Assembly (NCBI RefSeq): GCF_055900595.2
Contig: NZ_CM148325.1
Reading direction: 5' to 3' (one strand)
DNA: 64,000 bases
Part shown: positions 9,781 to 39,628 of the stretch, piece after piece
Layout: each line of letters opens with the position of its first letter
Numbering within the stretch: position 1 is the first letter of the stretch
Notes under the pieces: model-generated
What the model saw: only the letters and a program-made list of their open reading frames with translations
What the model was told of the DNA's origin: nothing
Databases searched by the model: none
Program-made: the position numbers and the translations under genes

Positions 9781-10542
9781 ATGTCGCTCGTTTGTTCTGT
9801 TATATTTATTCATCATGCCTTCAACGCTAACATTTTAGATAAAGATTACGCCTTCTCTGACGGCGAGATCTTGATGGTAGATAACGCTGTTCGTACGCAT
9901 TTTGAACCTTATGAGCGGCATTTTAAAGAAATCGGATTTAATGAAAATACCATTAAAAAATATCTACAATGCACTAACATCCAGACAGTGACGGTGCCTG
10001 TTCCTGCGAAGTTTTTACGTGCTTCAAATGTACCGACTGGATTGCTTAATGAAATGATTGCTTATCTCAACTCGGAAGAACGCAATCATCATAATTTTTC
10101 AGAACTTTTGCTTTTTTCTTGCCTGTCTATTTTTGCCGCATGCAAAGGTTTCATTACACTATTAACTAACGGTGTGCTATCCGTATCAGGGAAAGTGAGA
10201 AACATTGTCAATATGAAGCTGGCACACCCATGGAAACTAAAAGATATTTGTGATTGCCTGTATATTAGTGAAAGCCTGCTGAAGAAAAAACTAAAGCAAG
10301 AGCAAACGACATTCTCACAAATTCTTTTAGATGCCAGAATGCAACACGCAAAAAATTTGATACGCGTAGAAGGTTCAGTCAATAAAATTGCCGAAAAATG
10401 TGGTTATGCCAGTACATCTTATTTTATTTATGCTTTCCGCAAACATTTCGGCAACAGTCCAAAGAGAGTTTCAAAGGAGTACCGTTGTCAAAGGCACACG
10501 AATATGAACACGGGCAACACGATGAATGCTTTGGCTAATTGA
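9781..10542 (+). CDS. ydeO: AraC-family acid-resistance transcriptional regulator
   Basis: 253 aa ORF with C-terminal AraC-type helix-turn-helix (…KIAEKCGYASTSYFIYAFRKHFG…); AT-rich gene. Confidence 0.9.
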   Translation: MSLVCSVIFIHHAFNANILDKDYAFSDGEILMVDNAVRTHFEPYERHFKEIGFNENTIKKYLQCTNIQTVTVPVPAKFLRASNVPTGLLNEMIAYLNSEERNHHNFSELLLFSCLSIFAACKGFITLLTNGVLSVSGKVRNIVNMKLAHPWKLKDICDCLYISESLLKKKLKQEQTTFSQILLDARMQHAKNLIRVEGSVNKIAEKCGYASTSYFIYAFRKHFGNSPKRVSKEYRCQRHTNMNTGNTMNALAN

Positions 10543-12637: not shown

Positions 12638-12662
12638 GCGGCGGATTTTTCCGCCGCCTTAT
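12638..12662 (+). terminator. Rho-independent terminator after ydeN
   Basis: GCGGCGG-attttt-CCGCCGC followed by CTTATT. Confidence 0.55.
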
Positions 12663-12676
12663 TGAGCGAGATAGCG

Positions 12677-13837
12677 ATGCACGTTACAGCCAAGCCCTCC
12701 AGTTTTCAATGTAATCTCAAATGTGATTACTGTTTTTACCTTGAAAAAGAGTCGCAGTTTACTCATGAAAAATGGATGGATGACAGCACTCTGAAAGAGT
12801 TCATCAAACAATATATCGCAGCGTCTGGCAATCAGGTCTATTTTACCTGGCAAGGCGGTGAACCCACTCTGGCTGGCCTGGATTTTTTCCGTAAAGTTAT
12901 TCACTATCAACAACGCTATGCAGGCCAAAAACGTATTTTTAATGCATTACAAACGAATGGCATTTTATTGAATAATGAATGGTGTGCCTTTCTCAAAGAA
13001 CATGAGTTTCTGGTTGGTATCTCGATCGATGGACCCCAGGAGCTACATGACTATTACAGACGCAGTAATTCAGGTAACGGTACTTTTGCAAAAGTGATAG
13101 CAGCCATCGAGCGTCTGAAATCATATCAAGTAGAGTTTAATACGTTAACCGTCATTAATAACGTTAATGTCCATTACCCTCTTGAGGTTTATCATTTTTT
13201 AAAATCTATCGGCAGTAAACATATGCAATTTATCGAATTGCTCGAAACCGGGACGCCGAATATTGATTTCAGTGGTCATAGTGAGAACACATTCCGTATC
13301 ATTGATTTTTCTGTGCCTCCTACGGCTTATGGCAAGTTTATGTCAACCATTTTTATGCAATGGGTTAAAAACGATGTGGGTGAAATTTTCATCCGTCAGT
13401 TTGAAAGCTTTGTCAGCCGTTTTTTGGGGAATGGGCATACCAGCTGTATTTTCCAGGAGTCCTGCAAGGATAATCTGGTTGTTGAAAGTAATGGAGACAT
13501 TTACGAATGCGACCATTTTGTCTATCCACAGTACAAAATTGGAAACATTAATAAATCTGAACTCAAAACGATGAATAGTGTTCAACTGACAGCGCAAAAA
13601 AAACGGATTTCAGCGAAATGTCAGCAATGTGCATATAAACCTATCTGCAATGGTGGTTGCCCTAAACATCGTATTACTAAAGTAAACAATGAAACTGTTT
13701 CCTATTTTTGCGAAGGTTATAAAATCCTTTTTTCAACCATGGTGCCTTATATGAACGCCATGGTGGAGTTAGCTAAGAACAGAGTTCCACTTTACCACAT
13801 TATGGATGTTGCAAAACAAATGGAGAATAATAAATAA
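12677..13837 (+). CDS. ydeM: Radical-SAM anaerobic sulfatase-maturating enzyme
   Basis: ORF 12662-13837; start at ATG 12677 ([19 protein letters not shown]…). CxxxCxxC radical-SAM motif near the N-terminus plus C-terminal Cys clusters; adjacent to the sulfatase. Confidence 0.9.
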
Positions 13838-13887
13838 CGCACTCTATTAGCTTCAGTCTTAGCCTCCTTCTTATGAACTTAACAAGG

Positions 13888-13917
13888 CACCCGACATAAC
13901 TTCCTGTCGGGTGTTTC
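13888..13917 (+). terminator. Rho-independent terminator after ydeM
   Basis: CACCCGACA-taacttcc-TGTCGGGTG followed by TTTCGTC. Confidence 0.6.
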
Positions 13918-14087
13918 GTCATCATCATCTTCCCGTGCGAAAATCCTGGCTTACGAGGTATGCGTCAGGGCATTAGCAATACTCTTGATTATCAATAGCG
14001 TAACCATAACCACTGAAAATGAAATATTTCTTTATATTTCATATTGTTAAATGATACTTAAATAAATTTCATCAGTATATCATTGCC

Positions 14088-14139
14088 ATAGATAATCATT
14101 GGATGGCACAATCAATTTTCGCTAATGATAACCATTCCC
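14088..14139 (+). promoter_or_regulatory. Fur-box-like hexamer array at the yddA start
   Basis: GATAATCATTGG…GCTAATGATAACCATTCCC; the 19-mer at 14121-14139 matches the Fur consensus GATAATGATAATCATTATC at 15 of 19 positions by my count and overlaps the predicted ATG. Confidence 0.4.
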
Positions 14140-15810
14140 ATTACGTTTTGTATGTTGATAGCAAAGTATCTCTGTCTGCTGAAGCCCTTTTGGCTGCGTA
14201 AGAATAATAAAACTTCAGTGTTGTTAATCATTATTATCCTCGCCATGATCCTTGGCGTGGTTAAAATTCAGGTCTGGTTAAACGACTGGAATAATGATTT
14301 TTTCAATGCGCTAAGCCAGAAAGAAACTGATAAGCTTTGGCAGCTTGTCCTTTGGTTCCCTGCCCTGCTGGGGATCTTTGTATTAATATCCGTAAACAAA
14401 ACATGGTTAATTAAACTACTGACTATTCGCTGGCGCGAATGGTTAACAGATTACTACCTTAATCGCTGGTTTGCAGATAAAAACTACTATTTCACGCAGA
14501 TCTACGGCGAGCATAAAAATACAGATAACCCTGACCAACGTATCGCTGAAGACATTCTCTTACTGATCAGCAAAACGCTCAGCCTTTCATTTGGCTTCAT
14601 CCAGTCACTTAGCATGCTGATCACCTTTACCGTTATTCTTTGGCAAAGCGCGGGTACGCTCTCATTCACTGTTGGTGGAACTGAATGGAGTATCCCGGGG
14701 TATATGGTCTATACCGTCGTGCTCATTGTGATCGGTGGAACTTTATTTACCCATAAGGTTGGTAAACGTATTCGTCCGCTTAATGTGGAAAAACAACGTA
14801 GCGAAGCGACATTTCGAACTAATCTTGTACAGCATAATAAGCAGGCAGAACTGATTGCGCTAAGCAATGCTGAGTCTCTACAACGCCAGGAGTTGAGCGA
14901 AAATTTTCATACCATTAAAGAGAACTGGCATCGTTTAATGAATCGTCAGCGGTGGCTTGATTACTGGCAGAATATTTATTCGCGCTCGCTTAGCGTTCTT
15001 CCCTACTTTCTGTTATTGCCGCAGTTTATTAGCGGACAGATCAATCTGGGCGGACTGATGAAATCACGCCAGGCATTTATGCTGGTATCGAACAATTTAA
15101 GCTGGTTTATTTATAAATATGATGAACTTGCTGAACTGGCTGCGGTTATCGATCGCTTGTATGAGTTCCATCAACTCACCGAACAGCGCCCTACGAATAA
15201 GCCTAAAAATTGCCAACATGCGGTACAAGTGGCTGACGCGAGTATTCGTACTCCTGATAATAAGATCATATTAGAGAACCTGAACTTTCATGTTTCGCCA
15301 GGCAAATGGCTATTACTGAAAGGTTACTCTGGTGCGGGAAAAACCACACTGCTTAAAACATTATCCCACTGCTGGCCGTGGTTTAAAGGTGATATTTCGT
15401 CTCCTGCTGACAGTTGGTATGTGTCACAAACACCGTTAATCAAAAGCGGCTTACTGAAAGAGATTATTTGTAAAGCACTTCCTCTGCCCGTAGACGATAA
15501 ATCGTTGAGCGAAGTACTGCATCAGGTTGGTCTGGGGAAATTGGCTGCGCGTATTCATGACCACGATCGCTGGGGAGATATTCTTTCCAGCGGCGAAAAA
15601 CAACGTATCGCCCTGGCACGATTAATTTTACGACGTCCGAAATGGATATTTCTTGACGAAACTACCTCTCATCTTGAGGAACAAGAGGCTATCCGCTTAC
15701 TGCGTTTAGTGCGTGAAAAACTACCCACAAGCGGCGTCATTATGGTTACACATCAACCCGGTGTCTGGAACCTGGCCGATGATATTTGTGACATTAGCGC
15801 GGTTTTATAA
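14125..15810 (+). CDS. yddA: ABC transporter, fused permease and ATPase
   Basis: 561 aa ORF; N-terminal transmembrane region and C-terminal ABC domain with Walker A GYSGAGKTT and signature SSGEKQR. Confidence 0.9.
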   Translation: MITIPITFCMLIAKYLCLLKPFWLRKNNKTSVLLIIIILAMILGVVKIQVWLNDWNNDFFNALSQKETDKLWQLVLWFPALLGIFVLISVNKTWLIKLLTIRWREWLTDYYLNRWFADKNYYFTQIYGEHKNTDNPDQRIAEDILLLISKTLSLSFGFIQSLSMLITFTVILWQSAGTLSFTVGGTEWSIPGYMVYTVVLIVIGGTLFTHKVGKRIRPLNVEKQRSEATFRTNLVQHNKQAELIALSNAESLQRQELSENFHTIKENWHRLMNRQRWLDYWQNIYSRSLSVLPYFLLLPQFISGQINLGGLMKSRQAFMLVSNNLSWFIYKYDELAELAAVIDRLYEFHQLTEQRPTNKPKNCQHAVQVADASIRTPDNKIILENLNFHVSPGKWLLLKGYSGAGKTTLLKTLSHCWPWFKGDISSPADSWYVSQTPLIKSGLLKEIICKALPLPVDDKSLSEVLHQVGLGKLAARIHDHDRWGDILSSGEKQRIALARLILRRPKWIFLDETTSHLEEQEAIRLLRLVREKLPTSGVIMVTHQPGVWNLADDICDISAVL

Positions 15811-15847
15811 AAACAATAAAAGCCCTGCTGTACGGAGATAAAAATAA

Positions 15848-18220
15848 ATGAAGCGAGTTCTTATTCCTGGCGTCATTTTATGTGGCGCTGATGTGGCGCA
15901 GGCCGTCGATGACAAAAACATGTACATGCATGTTTTTGAAGAGATGACGGTCTATGCTCCTGTCCCTGTACCCGTAAACGGCAACACGCATTACACCAGT
16001 GAAAGCATCGAGCGTTTACCGACCGGGAATGGCAATATCAGCGATCTGCTGAGAACCAACCCTGCGGTGCGCATGGATTCAACGCAAAGTACCTCGTTGA
16101 ACCAGGGAGATATTCGCCCGGAGAAAATCTCTATTCACGGTGCGTCGCCCTACCAGAATGCCTATTTGATTGACGGTATTAGTGCAACTAATAACCTGAA
16201 CCCAGCGAATGAGTCCGATGCCAGTAGTGCAACCAATATTAGCGGGATGTCACAGGGCTATTATCTTGATGTCAGCTTACTCGACAATGTGACGCTTTAT
16301 GACAGTTTTGTGCCGGTTGAATTCGGTCGCTTCAATGGCGGGGTAATTGATGCAAAGATCAAACGCTTCAATGCTGATGATAGCAGCGTGAAACTGGGTT
16401 ATCGCACTACGCGTTCAAACTGGTTAACATCGCATATCGATGAGAATAACAAGAGCGCATTTAACCAAGGTTCTTCAGGAAGTACTTATTACTCTCCAGA
16501 TTTTAAAAAGAACTTTTATACTTTGGCGTTTAATCAGGAACTCGCTGATAACTTCGGCGTTACCGCCGGTTTATCGCGCCGCCAGTCTGATATCATCCGC
16601 GCGGATTATGTTTCGAATGACGGCATTGTCGCCGGCAGGGCACAGTATAAAAACGTTATCGATACTGCATTGAGCAAATTTACCTGGTTTGCCAGCGACC
16701 GCTTTACCCACGATTTAACCTTAAAATATACCGGCTCCAGCCGTGATTATAATACCAGCACCTTCCCGGAGTCTGATCGCGAAATGGGTAATAAATCCTA
16801 TGGTCTGGCATGGGATATGGATACCCAGCTCGCATGGGCCAAACTGCGTACCACCGTTGGTTGGGATCATATTAGTGATTATACCCGTCACGATCATGAC
16901 ATCTGGTACACCGAACTTTCATGTACATATGGCGATATTTCAGGGCGTTGCACCCGTGGCGGATTAGGACACATTTCCCAGGCTGTAGATAATTACACCT
17001 TCAAAACACGCCTTGACTGGCAAAAATTCGCCGTGGGTAATGTTTCGCATCAACCCTACTTCGGCGCGGAATACATCTATTCCGATGCATGGACTGAACG
17101 CCATAACCAGTCTGAATCCTATGTGATTAATGCTGCCGGAAAGAAAACTAACCATACCATTTACCATAAAGGTAAAGGCAGCCTGGGAATAGACAATTAC
17201 ACGCTGTATATGGCGGATCGCATTAGCTGGCGTAATGTGTCGTTAATGCCCGGCGTGCGGTATGACTATGATAACTATCTGTCAAACCACAATATCTCCC
17301 CGCGCTTTATGACGGAATGGGATATTTTTGCTGATCAAACCTCAATGATTACCGCAGGTTATAACCGTTACTATGGCGGGAATATTCTTGATATGGGATT
17401 ACGTGATATCCGCAATAGCTGGACGGAATCGGTATCAGGCAATAAAACCCTGACGCGTTATCAGGATTTGAAAACGCCTTATAACGATGAACTGGCAATG
17501 GGATTGCAGCAAAAAATCGGTAAGAACGTTATTGCGCGCGCAAACTATGTTTACCGTGAAGCGCATGATCAAATCAGCAAAAGCAGTCGTACCGACAGCG
17601 CGACTAAAACCACCATTACTGAATATAACAACGACGGTAAAACCAAAACGCATTCGTTCAACCTCAGTTTTGAACTGGCCGAACCCCTGCATATCAGCCA
17701 GGTAGATATTAACCCACAAATTGTCTTTAGCTATATCAAGAGCAAGGGCAACTTGTCGTTAAACAATGGTTATGAGGAGAGCAATACCGGTGATAACCGG
17801 GTGGTTTATAACGGTAATCTGGTCTCTTACGATAGCGTTCCAGTGGCGGATTTTAATAATCCACTAAAGATCTCCTTAAACATGGATTTCACGCATCAAC
17901 CGAGCGGGTTGGTGTGGGCGAATACGCTGACCTGGCAAGAAGCGCGTAAAGCTCGCATTATCCTGGGTAAGACGAATGCGCAATACATCAGCGAATATTC
18001 AGATTACAAGCAGTATGTTGACGAAAAACTGGATAGCAGCCTGACCTGGGACACCCGCTTGTCCTGGACGCCACAATTTCTGAAACAACAAAACCTGACG
18101 ATCAGTGCCGATATTCTCAATGTACTGGATAGCAAAACCGCTGTTGATACAACGAATACCGGCGTGGCGACCTACGCCAGTGGCCGTACTTTCTGGCTTG
18201 ATGTCAGCATGAAATTTTAA
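15848..18220 (+). CDS. yddB: TonB-dependent outer-membrane receptor
   Basis: 790 aa ORF with signal peptide and a C-terminal aromatic residue (…WLDVSMKF) typical of TonB-dependent receptors. Confidence 0.9.
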   Translation: MKRVLIPGVILCGADVAQAVDDKNMYMHVFEEMTVYAPVPVPVNGNTHYTSESIERLPTGNGNISDLLRTNPAVRMDSTQSTSLNQGDIRPEKISIHGASPYQNAYLIDGISATNNLNPANESDASSATNISGMSQGYYLDVSLLDNVTLYDSFVPVEFGRFNGGVIDAKIKRFNADDSSVKLGYRTTRSNWLTSHIDENNKSAFNQGSSGSTYYSPDFKKNFYTLAFNQELADNFGVTAGLSRRQSDIIRADYVSNDGIVAGRAQYKNVIDTALSKFTWFASDRFTHDLTLKYTGSSRDYNTSTFPESDREMGNKSYGLAWDMDTQLAWAKLRTTVGWDHISDYTRHDHDIWYTELSCTYGDISGRCTRGGLGHISQAVDNYTFKTRLDWQKFAVGNVSHQPYFGAEYIYSDAWTERHNQSESYVINAAGKKTNHTIYHKGKGSLGIDNYTLYMADRISWRNVSLMPGVRYDYDNYLSNHNISPRFMTEWDIFADQTSMITAGYNRYYGGNILDMGLRDIRNSWTESVSGNKTLTRYQDLKTPYNDELAMGLQQKIGKNVIARANYVYREAHDQISKSSRTDSATKTTITEYNNDGKTKTHSFNLSFELAEPLHISQVDINPQIVFSYIKSKGNLSLNNGYEESNTGDNRVVYNGNLVSYDSVPVADFNNPLKISLNMDFTHQPSGLVWANTLTWQEARKARIILGKTNAQYISEYSDYKQYVDEKLDSSLTWDTRLSWTPQFLKQQNLTISADILNVLDSKTAVDTTNTGVATYASGRTFWLDVSMKF

Positions 18221-18264
18221 TAGTTCGGATTTTACTTAACCGGGTAAATTCGCCCGGTTTTCGC

Positions 18265-21060
18265 ATGGAGATAATTATGAGAAACCTCTGTTTCTTACTG
18301 ACGTTAGTGGCAACTCTGTTGCTCCCCGGGCGACTGATTGCCGCCGCCTTACCGCAGGATGAAAAGTTAATTACCGGGCAACTGGACAATGGCTTGCGAT
18401 ATCTGATTTATCCGCATGCTCAACCAAAGGATCAGGTAAATTTATGGCTGCAAATTCATACCGGTTCATTGCAGGAAGAAGACAATGAGCGCGGCGTGGC
18501 TCATTTTGTAGAACATATGATGTTTAACGGCACAAAAACATGGCCGGGTAATAAAGTCATCGAAACATTTGAGTCAATGGGCCTGCGTTTTGGTCGCGAT
18601 GTTAATGCCTATACCAGCTATGACGAAACAGTGTATCAGGTGAGTTTGCCGACTACGCAGAAACAAAATCTGCAACAAGTGATGGCAATCTTCAGTGAAT
18701 GGAGTAATGCCGCAACCTTTGAAAAACTCGAAGTAGACGCTGAACGCGGCGTAATTACTGAGGAATGGCGTGCCCATCAGGATGCGAAATGGCGCACCTC
18801 TCAGGCGCGCCGCCCTTTCCTGCTGGCAAATACCCGTAATTTAGACCGTGAACCTATCGGCCTGATGGATACCGTCGCCACGGTCACACCGGCACAATTG
18901 CGCCAATTTTATCAACGCTGGTATCAACCAAATAATATGACCTTTATTGTGGTCGGCGATATCGACAGTAAAGAAGCGCTGGCGCTGATAAAGGATAATT
19001 TAAGTAAGCTTCCGGCTAACAAAGCAGCTGAAAATCGCGTCTGGCCGACAAAAGCCGAAAACCACCTGCGCTTTAATATCATCAATGATAAAGAAAACCG
19101 GGTGAACGGCATCGCACTCTATTATCGCCTGCCAATGGTACAAGTGAACGATGAGCAAAGCTTTATCGAACAAGCTGAATGGAGCATGTTGGTTCAGCTG
19201 TTCAACCAACGTCTGCAGGAACGTATACAGTCGGGCGAGTTGAAGACTATTTCTGGTGGCACTGCGCGCAGCGTTAAAATTGCACCCGATTATCAGTCGC
19301 TGTTTTTCCGTGTAAATGCACGTGACAATAATATGCAGGATGCTGCGAATGCATTAATGGCAGAGTTGGCAACCCTCGATCAACATGGTTTTTCTGCTGA
19401 AGAACTCGACGATGTTAAAACTACCCGCCTAACCTGGCTGAAAAATGCGGTTGATCAGCAAGCTGAACGCGATTTACGTATGCTGACCAGTCGCCTGGCG
19501 TCCAGCTCGTTAAATAATACGCCGTTCTTGTCGCCGGAAGAGACATACCAACTTTCGAAACGTCTGTGGCCGCAAATTACCGTGCAAAGTCTGGCGGAAA
19601 AATGGCAGCAGCTAAGAAAGAACCAGGACGCATTTTGGGAGCAAATGGTAAACAATGAAGTTGCCGCCAAAAAAGCATTGTCTCCTGCGGCTATCCTGGC
19701 GCTGGAAAAAGAGTACGCCAACAAAAAGCTGGCGGCTTACATCTTCCCAGGCAGAAATTTATCGTTAACAGTAGACGCTGACCCACAGGCGGAAATTAGC
19801 AGTAAAGAAACACTGGCTGAGAATCTGACATCATTAACACTTTCTAATGGTGCCAGGGTTATTCTGGCAAAATCAGCGGGTGAAGAGCAAAAGCTACAAA
19901 TTATTGCCGTATCTAATAAAGGTGATTTAAGTTTCCCTGCGGAGCAAAAATCACTTATCGCGCTGGCAAATAAAGCGGTGAGTGGCAGCGGCGTTGGTGA
20001 TCTCTCCTCTTCCAGCCTGAAACGCTGGAGTGCGGAAAACTCGGTAACCATGAGCAGCAAAGTCAGTGGGCTGAATACGTTGCTCTCCGTGAGCGCGCGG
20101 GCTAATAATCCTGAACCTGGTTTCCAGTTGATTAACCAGCGAATCACTCACAGCACGATTAATGACAATATTTGGGCATCGCTACAAAATGCTCAAATTC
20201 AGGCGTTGAAAACGCTCGACCAGCGTCCAGCAGAGAAATTCGCCCAGCAGATGTATGAGAAGCGCTATGCTGATGACCGTACGAAATTACTGCAAGAAAA
20301 ACAGATTGCACAATTTACCGCCGCAGACGCGCTGGCTGCCGATCGCCAGTTATTTTCATCTCCAGCGGATATCACGTTTGTCGTTGTCAGTAATGTCGCA
20401 GAAGACAAACTTCTGCCGTTAATTACGCATTACTTAGGATCAATCAAACACTCTGATTCGCCATTAGCCGCAGGTAAACCATTAACTCGCGCGACGGACA
20501 ACGCATCGATTACTGTAAAAGAACAAAATGAACCTGTGGCACAGGTTTCACAGTGGAAGCGTTATGATTCCCGGACACCGGTTAACCTGGCGACGCGTAT
20601 GGCGCTCGATGCTTTTAACGTCGCACTGGCAAAAGATCTACGCATTAATATTCGTGAACAGGCATCTGGGGCATACAGCGTTTCTTCTCGCCTCTCGGTT
20701 GATCCTCAGGCCAAAGACATCAGTCATTTGCTGGCTTTTACTTGTCAACCGGAACGACATGATGAACTGTTAACGTTAGCGAATGAAGTGATGGTTAAGC
20801 GTCTGGCTAAAGGGATCAGTGAGCAAGAACTGAACGAATACCAGCAAAACGTTCAGCGCAGCCTCGATATCCAACAGCGTAGCGTTCAACAATTAGCGAA
20901 CACCATTGTAAATAGTCTTATTCAATATGACGATCCTGCAGCATGGACTGAGCAGGAGCAATTATTGAAACAAATGACGGTAGAGAATGTTAACACTGCC
21001 GTTAAACAATATCTTTCTCATCCGGTGAATACCTATACCGGAGTATTATTGCCAAAATAA
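18265..21060 (+). CDS. pqqL: Periplasmic M16-family zinc protease
   Basis: 931 aa ORF with signal peptide and HxxEH inverted zinc-binding motif (HFVEHMMFNGT). Confidence 0.9.
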   Translation: MEIIMRNLCFLLTLVATLLLPGRLIAAALPQDEKLITGQLDNGLRYLIYPHAQPKDQVNLWLQIHTGSLQEEDNERGVAHFVEHMMFNGTKTWPGNKVIETFESMGLRFGRDVNAYTSYDETVYQVSLPTTQKQNLQQVMAIFSEWSNAATFEKLEVDAERGVITEEWRAHQDAKWRTSQARRPFLLANTRNLDREPIGLMDTVATVTPAQLRQFYQRWYQPNNMTFIVVGDIDSKEALALIKDNLSKLPANKAAENRVWPTKAENHLRFNIINDKENRVNGIALYYRLPMVQVNDEQSFIEQAEWSMLVQLFNQRLQERIQSGELKTISGGTARSVKIAPDYQSLFFRVNARDNNMQDAANALMAELATLDQHGFSAEELDDVKTTRLTWLKNAVDQQAERDLRMLTSRLASSSLNNTPFLSPEETYQLSKRLWPQITVQSLAEKWQQLRKNQDAFWEQMVNNEVAAKKALSPAAILALEKEYANKKLAAYIFPGRNLSLTVDADPQAEISSKETLAENLTSLTLSNGARVILAKSAGEEQKLQIIAVSNKGDLSFPAEQKSLIALANKAVSGSGVGDLSSSSLKRWSAENSVTMSSKVSGLNTLLSVSARANNPEPGFQLINQRITHSTINDNIWASLQNAQIQALKTLDQRPAEKFAQQMYEKRYADDRTKLLQEKQIAQFTAADALAADRQLFSSPADITFVVVSNVAEDKLLPLITHYLGSIKHSDSPLAAGKPLTRATDNASITVKEQNEPVAQVSQWKRYDSRTPVNLATRMALDAFNVALAKDLRINIREQASGAYSVSSRLSVDPQAKDISHLLAFTCQPERHDELLTLANEVMVKRLAKGISEQELNEYQQNVQRSLDIQQRSVQQLANTIVNSLIQYDDPAAWTEQEQLLKQMTVENVNTAVKQYLSHPVNTYTGVLLPK

Positions 21061-26003: not shown

Positions 26004-26325
26004 CTCTTGAAATATCCCACTAATAATCATGCTTATTTAAGCCAAATTAACCACGCAATTAACCACTCTTAGTTTAATAGCCATAAAACCCCTAATAAAA
26101 ATGTATGAATATGAAAACCCTACGGTATTCGCTGTTTCCGAAAAATAATTACGATGGGCTATACTCTTCTGAAGAACAGTAGCGTAGATTGAAACTGTCC
26201 TAACTCTCTTATTTCTTTTCAGTATATCTTCATATTTCAGGAGAATATGTGCAGTTAGTCGATCTCGCACGTTGCGTTTCGTTTTTGATTCCGTCTGCTT
26301 TCTCAGCCTTATAAGGGTGTGAATT

Positions 26326-39535: not shown

Positions 39536-39628
39536 TCCTTTTTCAGATCTCATCCATACTGGGTAGTGGCGAATAAATCTCATTTGCCTCACCTGCTATG
39601 CAGAACATCATCCGAAAAGGAGGAAACT

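Follow-up and report, generated by a model that had tools for sequence, protein, structure and literature searches.

Fur Control of the yddAB-pqqL Operon

Repression of the yddA-yddB-pqqL operon by Fur has been described for Escherichia coli K-12 and CFT073 (PMC2189734, PMC3855560, PMC4676285, Banerjee 2020 in PMC7157518, PMC10164565), with McHugh 2003 as an earlier source according to its citation in PMC3855560. Here, the Fur operator of this operon and the start codon of its first gene, yddA, were analyzed in a stretch of 64,000 nucleotides (nt) from contig NZ_CM148325.1 (NCBI RefSeq assembly GCF_055900595.2), hereafter called the window, to whose first letter all coordinates refer unless stated otherwise. 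The operator is real, ordinary and was published in detail before; control of yddAB-pqqL by Fur belongs to textbook knowledge of the regulon, and its confirmation adds nothing new. What is added here is an independent matrix test of the operator and a comparative case for revising the yddA start codon, which amounts to a minor annotation correction. On this comparative evidence the annotated start is probably 27 nt too far upstream, with the ATG that encodes Met10 of the annotated protein favored in its place.

The yddA site was reported by Chen 2007 (PMC2189734) at 19.6 bits, centered at +8 in the annotated gene and with two walkers in a 25-bp cluster. In that study it is one of the 42 strongest Fur clusters genome-wide, with the footnote "overlapping the translational start." For yddA, neither a DNase footprint nor a gel shift was found in the literature, and Table 4 of Chen 2007 gives the site no F or G flag. 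The same Fur box was printed for CFT073 by Subashchandrabose 2013 (PMC3855560) as GGGAATGGTTATCATTAG, which is the reverse complement of 14122–14139 in the window. That study found the three genes to be co-transcribed (by reverse transcription PCR), upregulated more than 30-fold in urine and derepressed in a fur mutant. The derepression published for the CFT073 fur mutant is 42- to 56-fold, with 52-fold as one of the values, and the log2 fold changes published for fur deletion in MG1655 are 3.1, 2.9, and 2.3 for yddA, yddB, and pqqL, respectively. With regard to the gene products, the structures of YddB and PqqL have been solved by Grinter 2019 (PMC6793856), where PqqL was found to be periplasmic, with protein levels that rise with bipyridine and in urine. 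A protein-import system like the Fus system was proposed there for YddB/PqqL, the substrate being given as unknown.

Fur occupancy has been published as well. Chromatin immunoprecipitation sequencing (ChIP-seq) gave a Fur peak upstream of yddAB-pqqL in both K-12 and CFT073, while the MG1655 table of Gao 2023 (PMC10164565), obtained by the exonuclease-based variant of the method (ChIP-exo), lists peaks at 1577347–1577374 and 1577233–1577267 (U00096.2). These map to 14117–14144 (main site) and 14224–14258 (a site within yddA) of the window, the yddA ATG being placed at 1577366 from the Chen center of 1577358 at +8 (this ATG is at 1579342 in NC_000913.3). In the MG1655 sheet of Dataset 2 of PMC10164565, the gene and transcription unit columns were found to run one row off the peak coordinates from about P37 on; for example, yddA stands beside a peak upstream of adhP, and uxaB beside a peak of yddA. 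After correction for this row shift, both ChIP-exo peaks would belong to yddA.

Fur Operator of yddA

The 19-mer GCTAATGATAACCATTCCC at 14121–14139 agrees with the classical consensus for Fur, GATAATGATAATCATTATC, at 15 of its 19 positions and spans the annotated ATG at 14125. Both the count and the overlap had been given in a prior reading of the window made from its letters without database searches (the sequence-only reading), and both were reproduced. It is the sole 15/19 match on either strand of the whole 64 kb. A match of at least 15/19, however, turns up in 16% of mononucleotide shuffles of the window, so that the count is only modestly unusual and on its own constitutes weak evidence. 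A position weight matrix, which has much greater discriminating power, was therefore built from MG1655 Fur sites. It was derived from 18 sites placed via the offsets in Table 4 of Chen 2007, with yddA excluded, and all 18 landed exactly on a 7-1-7 motif. The nohD/nohB site was left out of training: the start annotated there has since shifted, and the offset given in the table misses the site. A second matrix was restricted to the 12 sites that have been footprinted or gel-shifted.

The yddA site, centered at 14133 (AATGATAACCATTCCCATT), scored 18.7 bits with the 18-site matrix and 19.8 bits with the 12-site matrix, which is within the range of validated sites (18.7–28.3 bits for the 18 training sites; training minimum of 19.8 for the 12). 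The second-best position in the 64 kb reached 13.0 bits, leaving the yddA site ahead by about 6 bits. The exact per-position probability of the yddA-site score is 2.5e-7, corresponding to 0.016 sites expected per 64 kb, and of 200 dinucleotide shuffles, six reached this score. Matches of at least 14.8 bits in a further 103 kb of MG1655 sequence sit at the Fur-regulated promoters nohB, fepB, and yeiL. The matrix scoring that the sequence-only reading had put forward as a check thus places the site far above the background of the window. Taken together, the 19-mer and the matrix site (14124–14142) define a main operator at 14121–14142, with the 7-1-7 core TGATAAC-C-ATTCCCA. Its sequence is identical in K-12, and the published work on Fur therefore applies directly to the window.

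The proposal of an iron- and Fur-regulated uptake and processing module, made from the sequence, is borne out by the published occupancy, the derepression in fur mutants and the co-transcription, along with a matrix score above background. A true operator could be recovered from raw sequence alone, as that first reading shows.

Start Codon of yddA

The annotated start codon (Met1) is located at 14125–14127 on the plus strand, within the operator. The sequence-only reading had questioned whether this start is correctly placed, and the doubt appears justified, since the comparative evidence favors the in-frame ATG at 14152–14154 (plus strand; Met10 of the annotated protein). Within E. coli, a 461-nt region was 97–100% identical among the genomes listed; this variation is too low to settle the start codon, and the comparison was therefore moved to other species. 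Orthologous operons comprised the Escherichia loci L001 (K-12) and L002–L005, L010 (83% YddA identity), L011 (58%), and L006 and L024–L028 (48–53%). The divergent orthologues were obtained by protein search and contig look-ups, while a scan of genome contigs gave eight loci, five of them useful. The L010 operon is syntenic with a gadB-like gene. Locus L002 (JARKOR010000108.1) is labeled as a Candidatus Nanosynbacter metagenome-assembled genome and has a YddA 99% identical to that of E. coli; this is almost certainly E. coli sequence placed in the wrong bin.

All 12 orthologous loci in which yddA is followed by a TonB-dependent transporter gene (and in some by an M16 protease gene), with YddA identities from 99% down to 48%, have a Fur box of 18.7–28.1 bits at most 100 nt upstream of the N-terminal motif. 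This motif, (K/R)PFW, is conserved, and all homologues outside Escherichia start 30–36 nt before its K/R codon. The distance to the KPFW anchor is 30 nt from Met10 (ATG 14152) and 57 nt from the annotated Met1. Similarly, the commonest N-terminal length ahead of the motif in the wider family is 11 residues, where Met10 gives 10 and Met1 gives 19.

Between the two ATGs, L010 reads ATG ATA ATT GTT ACC ATT TAG. Owing to this in-frame stop, the upstream ATG cannot start YddA in L010, which still keeps both the promoter hexamers and a Fur box of 20.0 bits. The representative protein of the L010 cluster is called from the ATG equivalent to Met10. The substitution pattern also shifts exactly at Met10. 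Within the apparent codons 2–9, all nine changed codons (in comparisons of K-12, L004, and L010) are non-synonymous, while changes in the next 120 codons are overwhelmingly synonymous. Changes to L010 number five non-synonymous and none synonymous upstream, vs. 14 and 43 downstream (Fisher p = 0.0018), and a version of the test based on codon position gave p = 0.0005.

A probable source for the longer annotation can be found in the operator itself. Like every good Fur box, the Fur consensus AATGATAAT has its own ATG 8 nt before the center of the box (14124–14132 in the window), which equals the +8 offset for yddA, and gene callers obtain the longer open reading frame (ORF) because an in-frame Fur box supplies this ATG. 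It is reasonably likely that the start of UniProt P31826 (561 amino acids), which PGAP also uses across E. coli, is a longest-ORF artifact of the Fur-box ATG, and that YddA is made from Met10 (552 amino acids) with the operator at +2 to +24 of a leader of ~33 nt that has no Shine-Dalgarno sequence; the +8 offset at ynaE/ydfK suggests a small class of such cases. Neither a proposal for a start 27 nt downstream nor comparative support for one was found in the literature, in a search that was incomplete.

If true, the correction would change the expression constructs, the structural models and the N-terminal topology used for YddA, a transporter from a protein-import system associated with virulence. 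The regulation would also become ordinary, with the operator a short way past the −10 element and not "over the start codon." In addition, the correction points to a simple, checkable source of annotation errors, because a Fur box that lies in frame always presents gene callers with an ATG.

Promoter and Mode of Repression

A promoter scan predicted a −35 hexamer TTGCCA at 14083–14088 and an extended −10 element TGgCACAAT at 14104–14112, both on the plus strand. The resulting TTGCCA-18-TGnCACAAT (14083–14112) is the sole sigma-70-like match on the plus strand of the yddA intergenic region. The hexamer TTGCCA or TTGCAA with an 18-nt spacer was found in the five Escherichia loci and L010, and the extended −10 is invariant in all six aligned sequences, L010 included. 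Between the window and L010, conservation covers the two hexamers, the TG and the spacer length of 18 nt, while the sequence of the spacer has diverged. The Fur box starts 9 nt past this predicted −10 element. The same layout was observed in L011, where TTGAAA-16-TATAAT lies directly ahead of a box of 24.7 bits and the ATG is 17 nt past the box center.

From the position of the predicted −10, transcription of yddA would start near 14119–14121. The operator would then lie at about +2 to +24 and ATG 14152 about 33 nt into the transcript, while ATG 14125 would be left with a leader of 4–6 nt. A leaderless mRNA starting at A14125 was considered and rejected, as the conserved −10 ends 12 nt upstream, which would be too far; no published report linking yddA to a leaderless mRNA was found.

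The open complex of RNA polymerase extends to about +20, and Fur at the operator would for this reason exclude the polymerase. In the proposed mechanism, iron-loaded Fur dimers would hold ~28 bp (14117–14144), beginning a few bases past the TTGCCA-18-TGnCACAAT promoter and covering the predicted transcription start together with the first 20–25 transcribed bases. Fur bound there would prevent RNA polymerase from making the open complex or escaping it, and the weaker site ~100 bp downstream within yddA would also be bound. Upon iron scarcity or deletion of fur, Fur would leave and a single mRNA for YddB, PqqL, and YddA would be made. The outer-membrane TonB-dependent transporter YddB, the periplasmic protease PqqL and the inner-membrane transporter YddA together resemble the Fus system, by which Pectobacterium imports ferredoxin. 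Taken as a whole, this account of the site as the Fur operator of yddA-yddB-pqqL is considered highly likely. The sequence match, its conservation and the published occupancy, derepression and co-transcription are shown, while the promoter and transcription start, the occlusion by Fur, the start at ATG 14152 and the direction of YddA transport are inferred.

Alternative Explanations

A number of observations weigh against this interpretation. No stop interrupts the frame from ATG 14125 in any of the E. coli and closely related Escherichia sequences examined, and both the K-12 curators and the Prokaryotic Genome Annotation Pipeline (PGAP) start the 561-residue YddA at Met1; on these grounds, E. 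coli could still use Met1. The evidence for a stop codon between the two ATGs rests on one metagenomic contig (L010), the representative being the only protein read from a cluster of 126. No Shine-Dalgarno sequence is present before either yddA ATG, nor before the conserved start in any of the orthologues (L006, L010, L011, L024–L028), the leaders of which are A/U-rich, so that ribosome-binding signals do not separate Met1 from Met10. No mapped transcription start of yddA was found in the literature, and the promoter is a consensus match with conservation. Concerning iron control, dipyridyl in lysogeny broth gave no induction of the operon in CFT073 by quantitative PCR, whereas fur deletion did (PMC3855560), early microarrays showed no significant repression according to Chen 2007 (PMC2189734), and yddB and pqqL mutants grow normally under iron limitation (PMC6793856).

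Were the annotated ATG at 14125 correct in E. coli, the operator would truly lie over the start, the leader would be a few nt long or an upstream promoter would be used, and Fur would act as a roadblock to elongating polymerase. In addition to the open frame and the two annotations, this would fit the description by Chen 2007 (PMC2189734) of a cluster "between the promoter and the translational start" without a strong sigma-70 promoter overlapping it, as well as the 15–20 residues that some distant homologues have ahead of the KPFW motif. It is nevertheless judged unlikely in view of the in-frame TAG in an orthologue of 83% identity, the exclusively non-synonymous changes in codons 2–9, the start of every non-Escherichia orthologue at the Met10-equivalent position and the conserved −10, which leaves just 4–6 nt ahead of ATG 14125; moreover, the ATG is intrinsic to the Fur consensus, so no coding explanation for it is required. 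The use of both in-frame ATGs appears more doubtful still. These could yield a long and a short YddA, or the upstream one could open a nine-codon translated leader (in L010, a separate upstream ORF) that aids ribosomes in reaching a Met10 lacking a Shine-Dalgarno sequence. The L010 upstream ATG does open an ORF of six codons, with its end 6 nt ahead of the main ATG, the upstream ATG is kept across the Escherichia group, and the absence of Shine-Dalgarno sequences in all orthologues is in keeping with such assistance. Retention of the ATG is, however, fully accounted for by the Fur box. The box of L006 and L024–L028 is 50–60 nt further upstream with no comparable upstream ORF by the start, and the predicted leader ahead of the first ATG would be too short for normal initiation.

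It could also be argued that the box is a chance match in an AT-rich intergenic region and that Fur acts on the operon only indirectly, for example by way of RyhB or some other regulator. The 16% of shuffled windows with a 15/19 match would agree with this, as would the lack of induction by dipyridyl in one study (PMC3855560) and the extra RyhB effect on RNA level reported by Beauchene 2015 (PMC4676285). Against it stand a matrix score at the level of validated sites, which only 0.016 sites per window would be expected to reach, ChIP-exo and ChIP-seq signals that locate Fur precisely here in both K-12 and CFT073, and a strong upstream box in 12/12 orthologous loci down to 48% protein identity. 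On the strength of the occupancy data and the conservation over the twelve loci, a chance match with indirect regulation is excluded with near certainty. Pairing of RyhB with the yddA leader was also evaluated and then dropped, the duplex (−36.5 kcal/mol) being no better than those with shuffled targets (z = −0.78).

Secondary Fur-Like Sites

The sequence-only reading had described an array of Fur-like hexamers. One strong site was found (center 14133), while its companions are weak. A site at 14118–14136 overlaps the main one, with its center at 14127 (6 bp upstream of the main center) and a score of 6.1 bits. A second, at 14082–14100, lies over the −35 and spacer and contains an exact GATAAT (14090–14095), but matches the consensus at 12/19, scores 3.6 bits and is not kept in L010. 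Further upstream, a site at 13978–13996 (center 13987) reached 9.9–10.6 bits, with no MG1655 ChIP-exo peak listed there. The secondary site within the yddA coding sequence (14220–14258; GTTGTTAATCATTATTATCCTC) has a 14/19 match at 14220–14241 and scores of 4.7–6.4 bits. The corresponding site gave 9.1–11.6 bits in L003–L005, compared with 4.7 bits in the window and K-12, and its role could be cooperative binding or that of a roadblock. Weak sites can be occupied in vivo, since the published adhP ChIP-exo site, which maps to 39566–39584 of the window, has a matrix score of only 6.0 bits. Other matrix matches of 11–13 bits are at 26019–26037, 10194–10212, 63213–63231, and 179–197.

Gene Content and Distribution of the Locus

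The window is part of an E. coli chromosome with the gene layout ydeN-ydeM, yddA-yddB-pqqL, gadB-gadC, in the reverse of the K-12 coordinate direction. A 2.3-kb query around the site (13700–16000) matched 5,363 of 5,426 complete E. coli genomes, the best at 99.9% identity, and the genes are named ydeM, yddA, and yddB in the matched genomes. All three genes of the operon are on the plus strand. The first, yddA (14125–15810 as annotated), encodes an ABC transporter of type IV in which a membrane domain resembling SbmA/BacA is fused to an ATPase domain (PF06472, PF05992, and PF00005), where PF06472 (ABC_membrane_2) spans residues 28–301 and PF00005 (ABC_tran) residues 383–515. It is followed by yddB (15848–18220), encoding a FusA-like TonB-dependent outer-membrane transporter of 790 amino acids with a Plug domain, and by pqqL (18265–21060), encoding a FusC-like periplasmic M16 metalloprotease of 931 amino acids with Peptidase_M16 and M16_C domains, the latter in two stretches (for the structure and role of YddB and for PqqL see PMC6793856). 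The intergenic gaps are 37 nt (yddA/yddB) and 44 nt (yddB/pqqL), in agreement with the tight, co-directional linkage noted from the sequence. The transporter and protease genes stand side by side, an order that is repeated in L006, L010, and L011. No convincing Rho-independent terminator was found 3′ of pqqL; the sole match lies inside the 3′ end of the gene and has a poor T-tail.

The yddA 5′ region was matched by 4,616 E. coli genomes, compared with the 5,363 matching some part of the 2.3-kb query. Fused or shortened products were found, in which the M16 protease or the radical-SAM protein YdeM is joined to the ABC transporter, and in one genome an insertion of the IS5 family lies within yddA. 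These observations suggest repeated decay of the operon in some lineages. The contig that carries the L011 operon (58% identity; positions 1–5500 of L011) is plasmid-like and also holds Rep3, ParA/ParB-like, integrase, and IS21 genes, a setting in which the module of yddA, TonB-dependent transporter and M16 protease genes may move horizontally. Upstream of the operon, ydeM (12662–13837, plus strand) is flagged as frameshifted in the annotation of the nearest genome. That annotation also has a hypothetical protein of 40 amino acids at ~13800–13922 (minus strand), where K-12 has yneP; its ORF diverges from yddA and overlaps ydeM at the 3′ end of the latter. A promoter-like match on the minus strand (14050–14023) faces this small ORF.

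Comparison With Related Systems

The closest described system is the published yddAB-pqqL operon of K-12 and CFT073, of which the window holds the same locus with the same gene order, an identical operator and the box over the annotated start. The products can be compared with two further groups. One is that of the SbmA/BacA-like type IV transporters (BclA, Rv1819c), with which YddA is grouped by its matches to PF05992 and PF06472 and its fused ATPase domain. The sequence-only reading had named it an ABC exporter. This label holds for the type IV ("exporter-fold") membrane domain fused to an ATPase, but outward transport is not established and the evidence is conflicting. In a 2026 study, which calls the function of YddA unknown, the protein is classed among the type IV ABC transporters, the YddA family forms the root from which the SbmA/BacA importers radiate, and the importer Rv1819c is named as the nearest structural homologue. 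Rv1819c, BclA, and SbmA import peptides or cobalamin, whereas drug efflux has been reported for YddA in one study (PMC9728188, from 2020). In the Fus model, the counterpart of YddA is thought to import released cargo (PMC6793856), and YddA may likewise import the cargo.

The Fus system of Pectobacterium (FusA/FusB/FusC/FusD) and other protease-associated import systems (PMC6793856) likewise bring together a TonB-dependent transporter, an M16 protease and an inner-membrane ABC transporter in an iron-regulated cluster. The window differs in having no TonB-like FusB gene between yddA and pqqL, and YddB is only distantly related to FusA (PMC6793856). Furthermore, yddB and pqqL mutants have no defect under simple iron limitation (PMC6793856).

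As regards the operator, strong Fur sites situated past the −10 element or over the annotated start, as at yddA, are also found in the fepD-entS, fecA, ynaE/ydfK (+8), and ybeQ (+2) clusters (Table 4 of PMC2189734). The offset from the annotated start at ynaE/ydfK is the same as at yddA, and yddA, ynaE/ydfK, and ybeQ may represent a small class of genes whose annotated starts are longest-ORF artifacts in Fur boxes.

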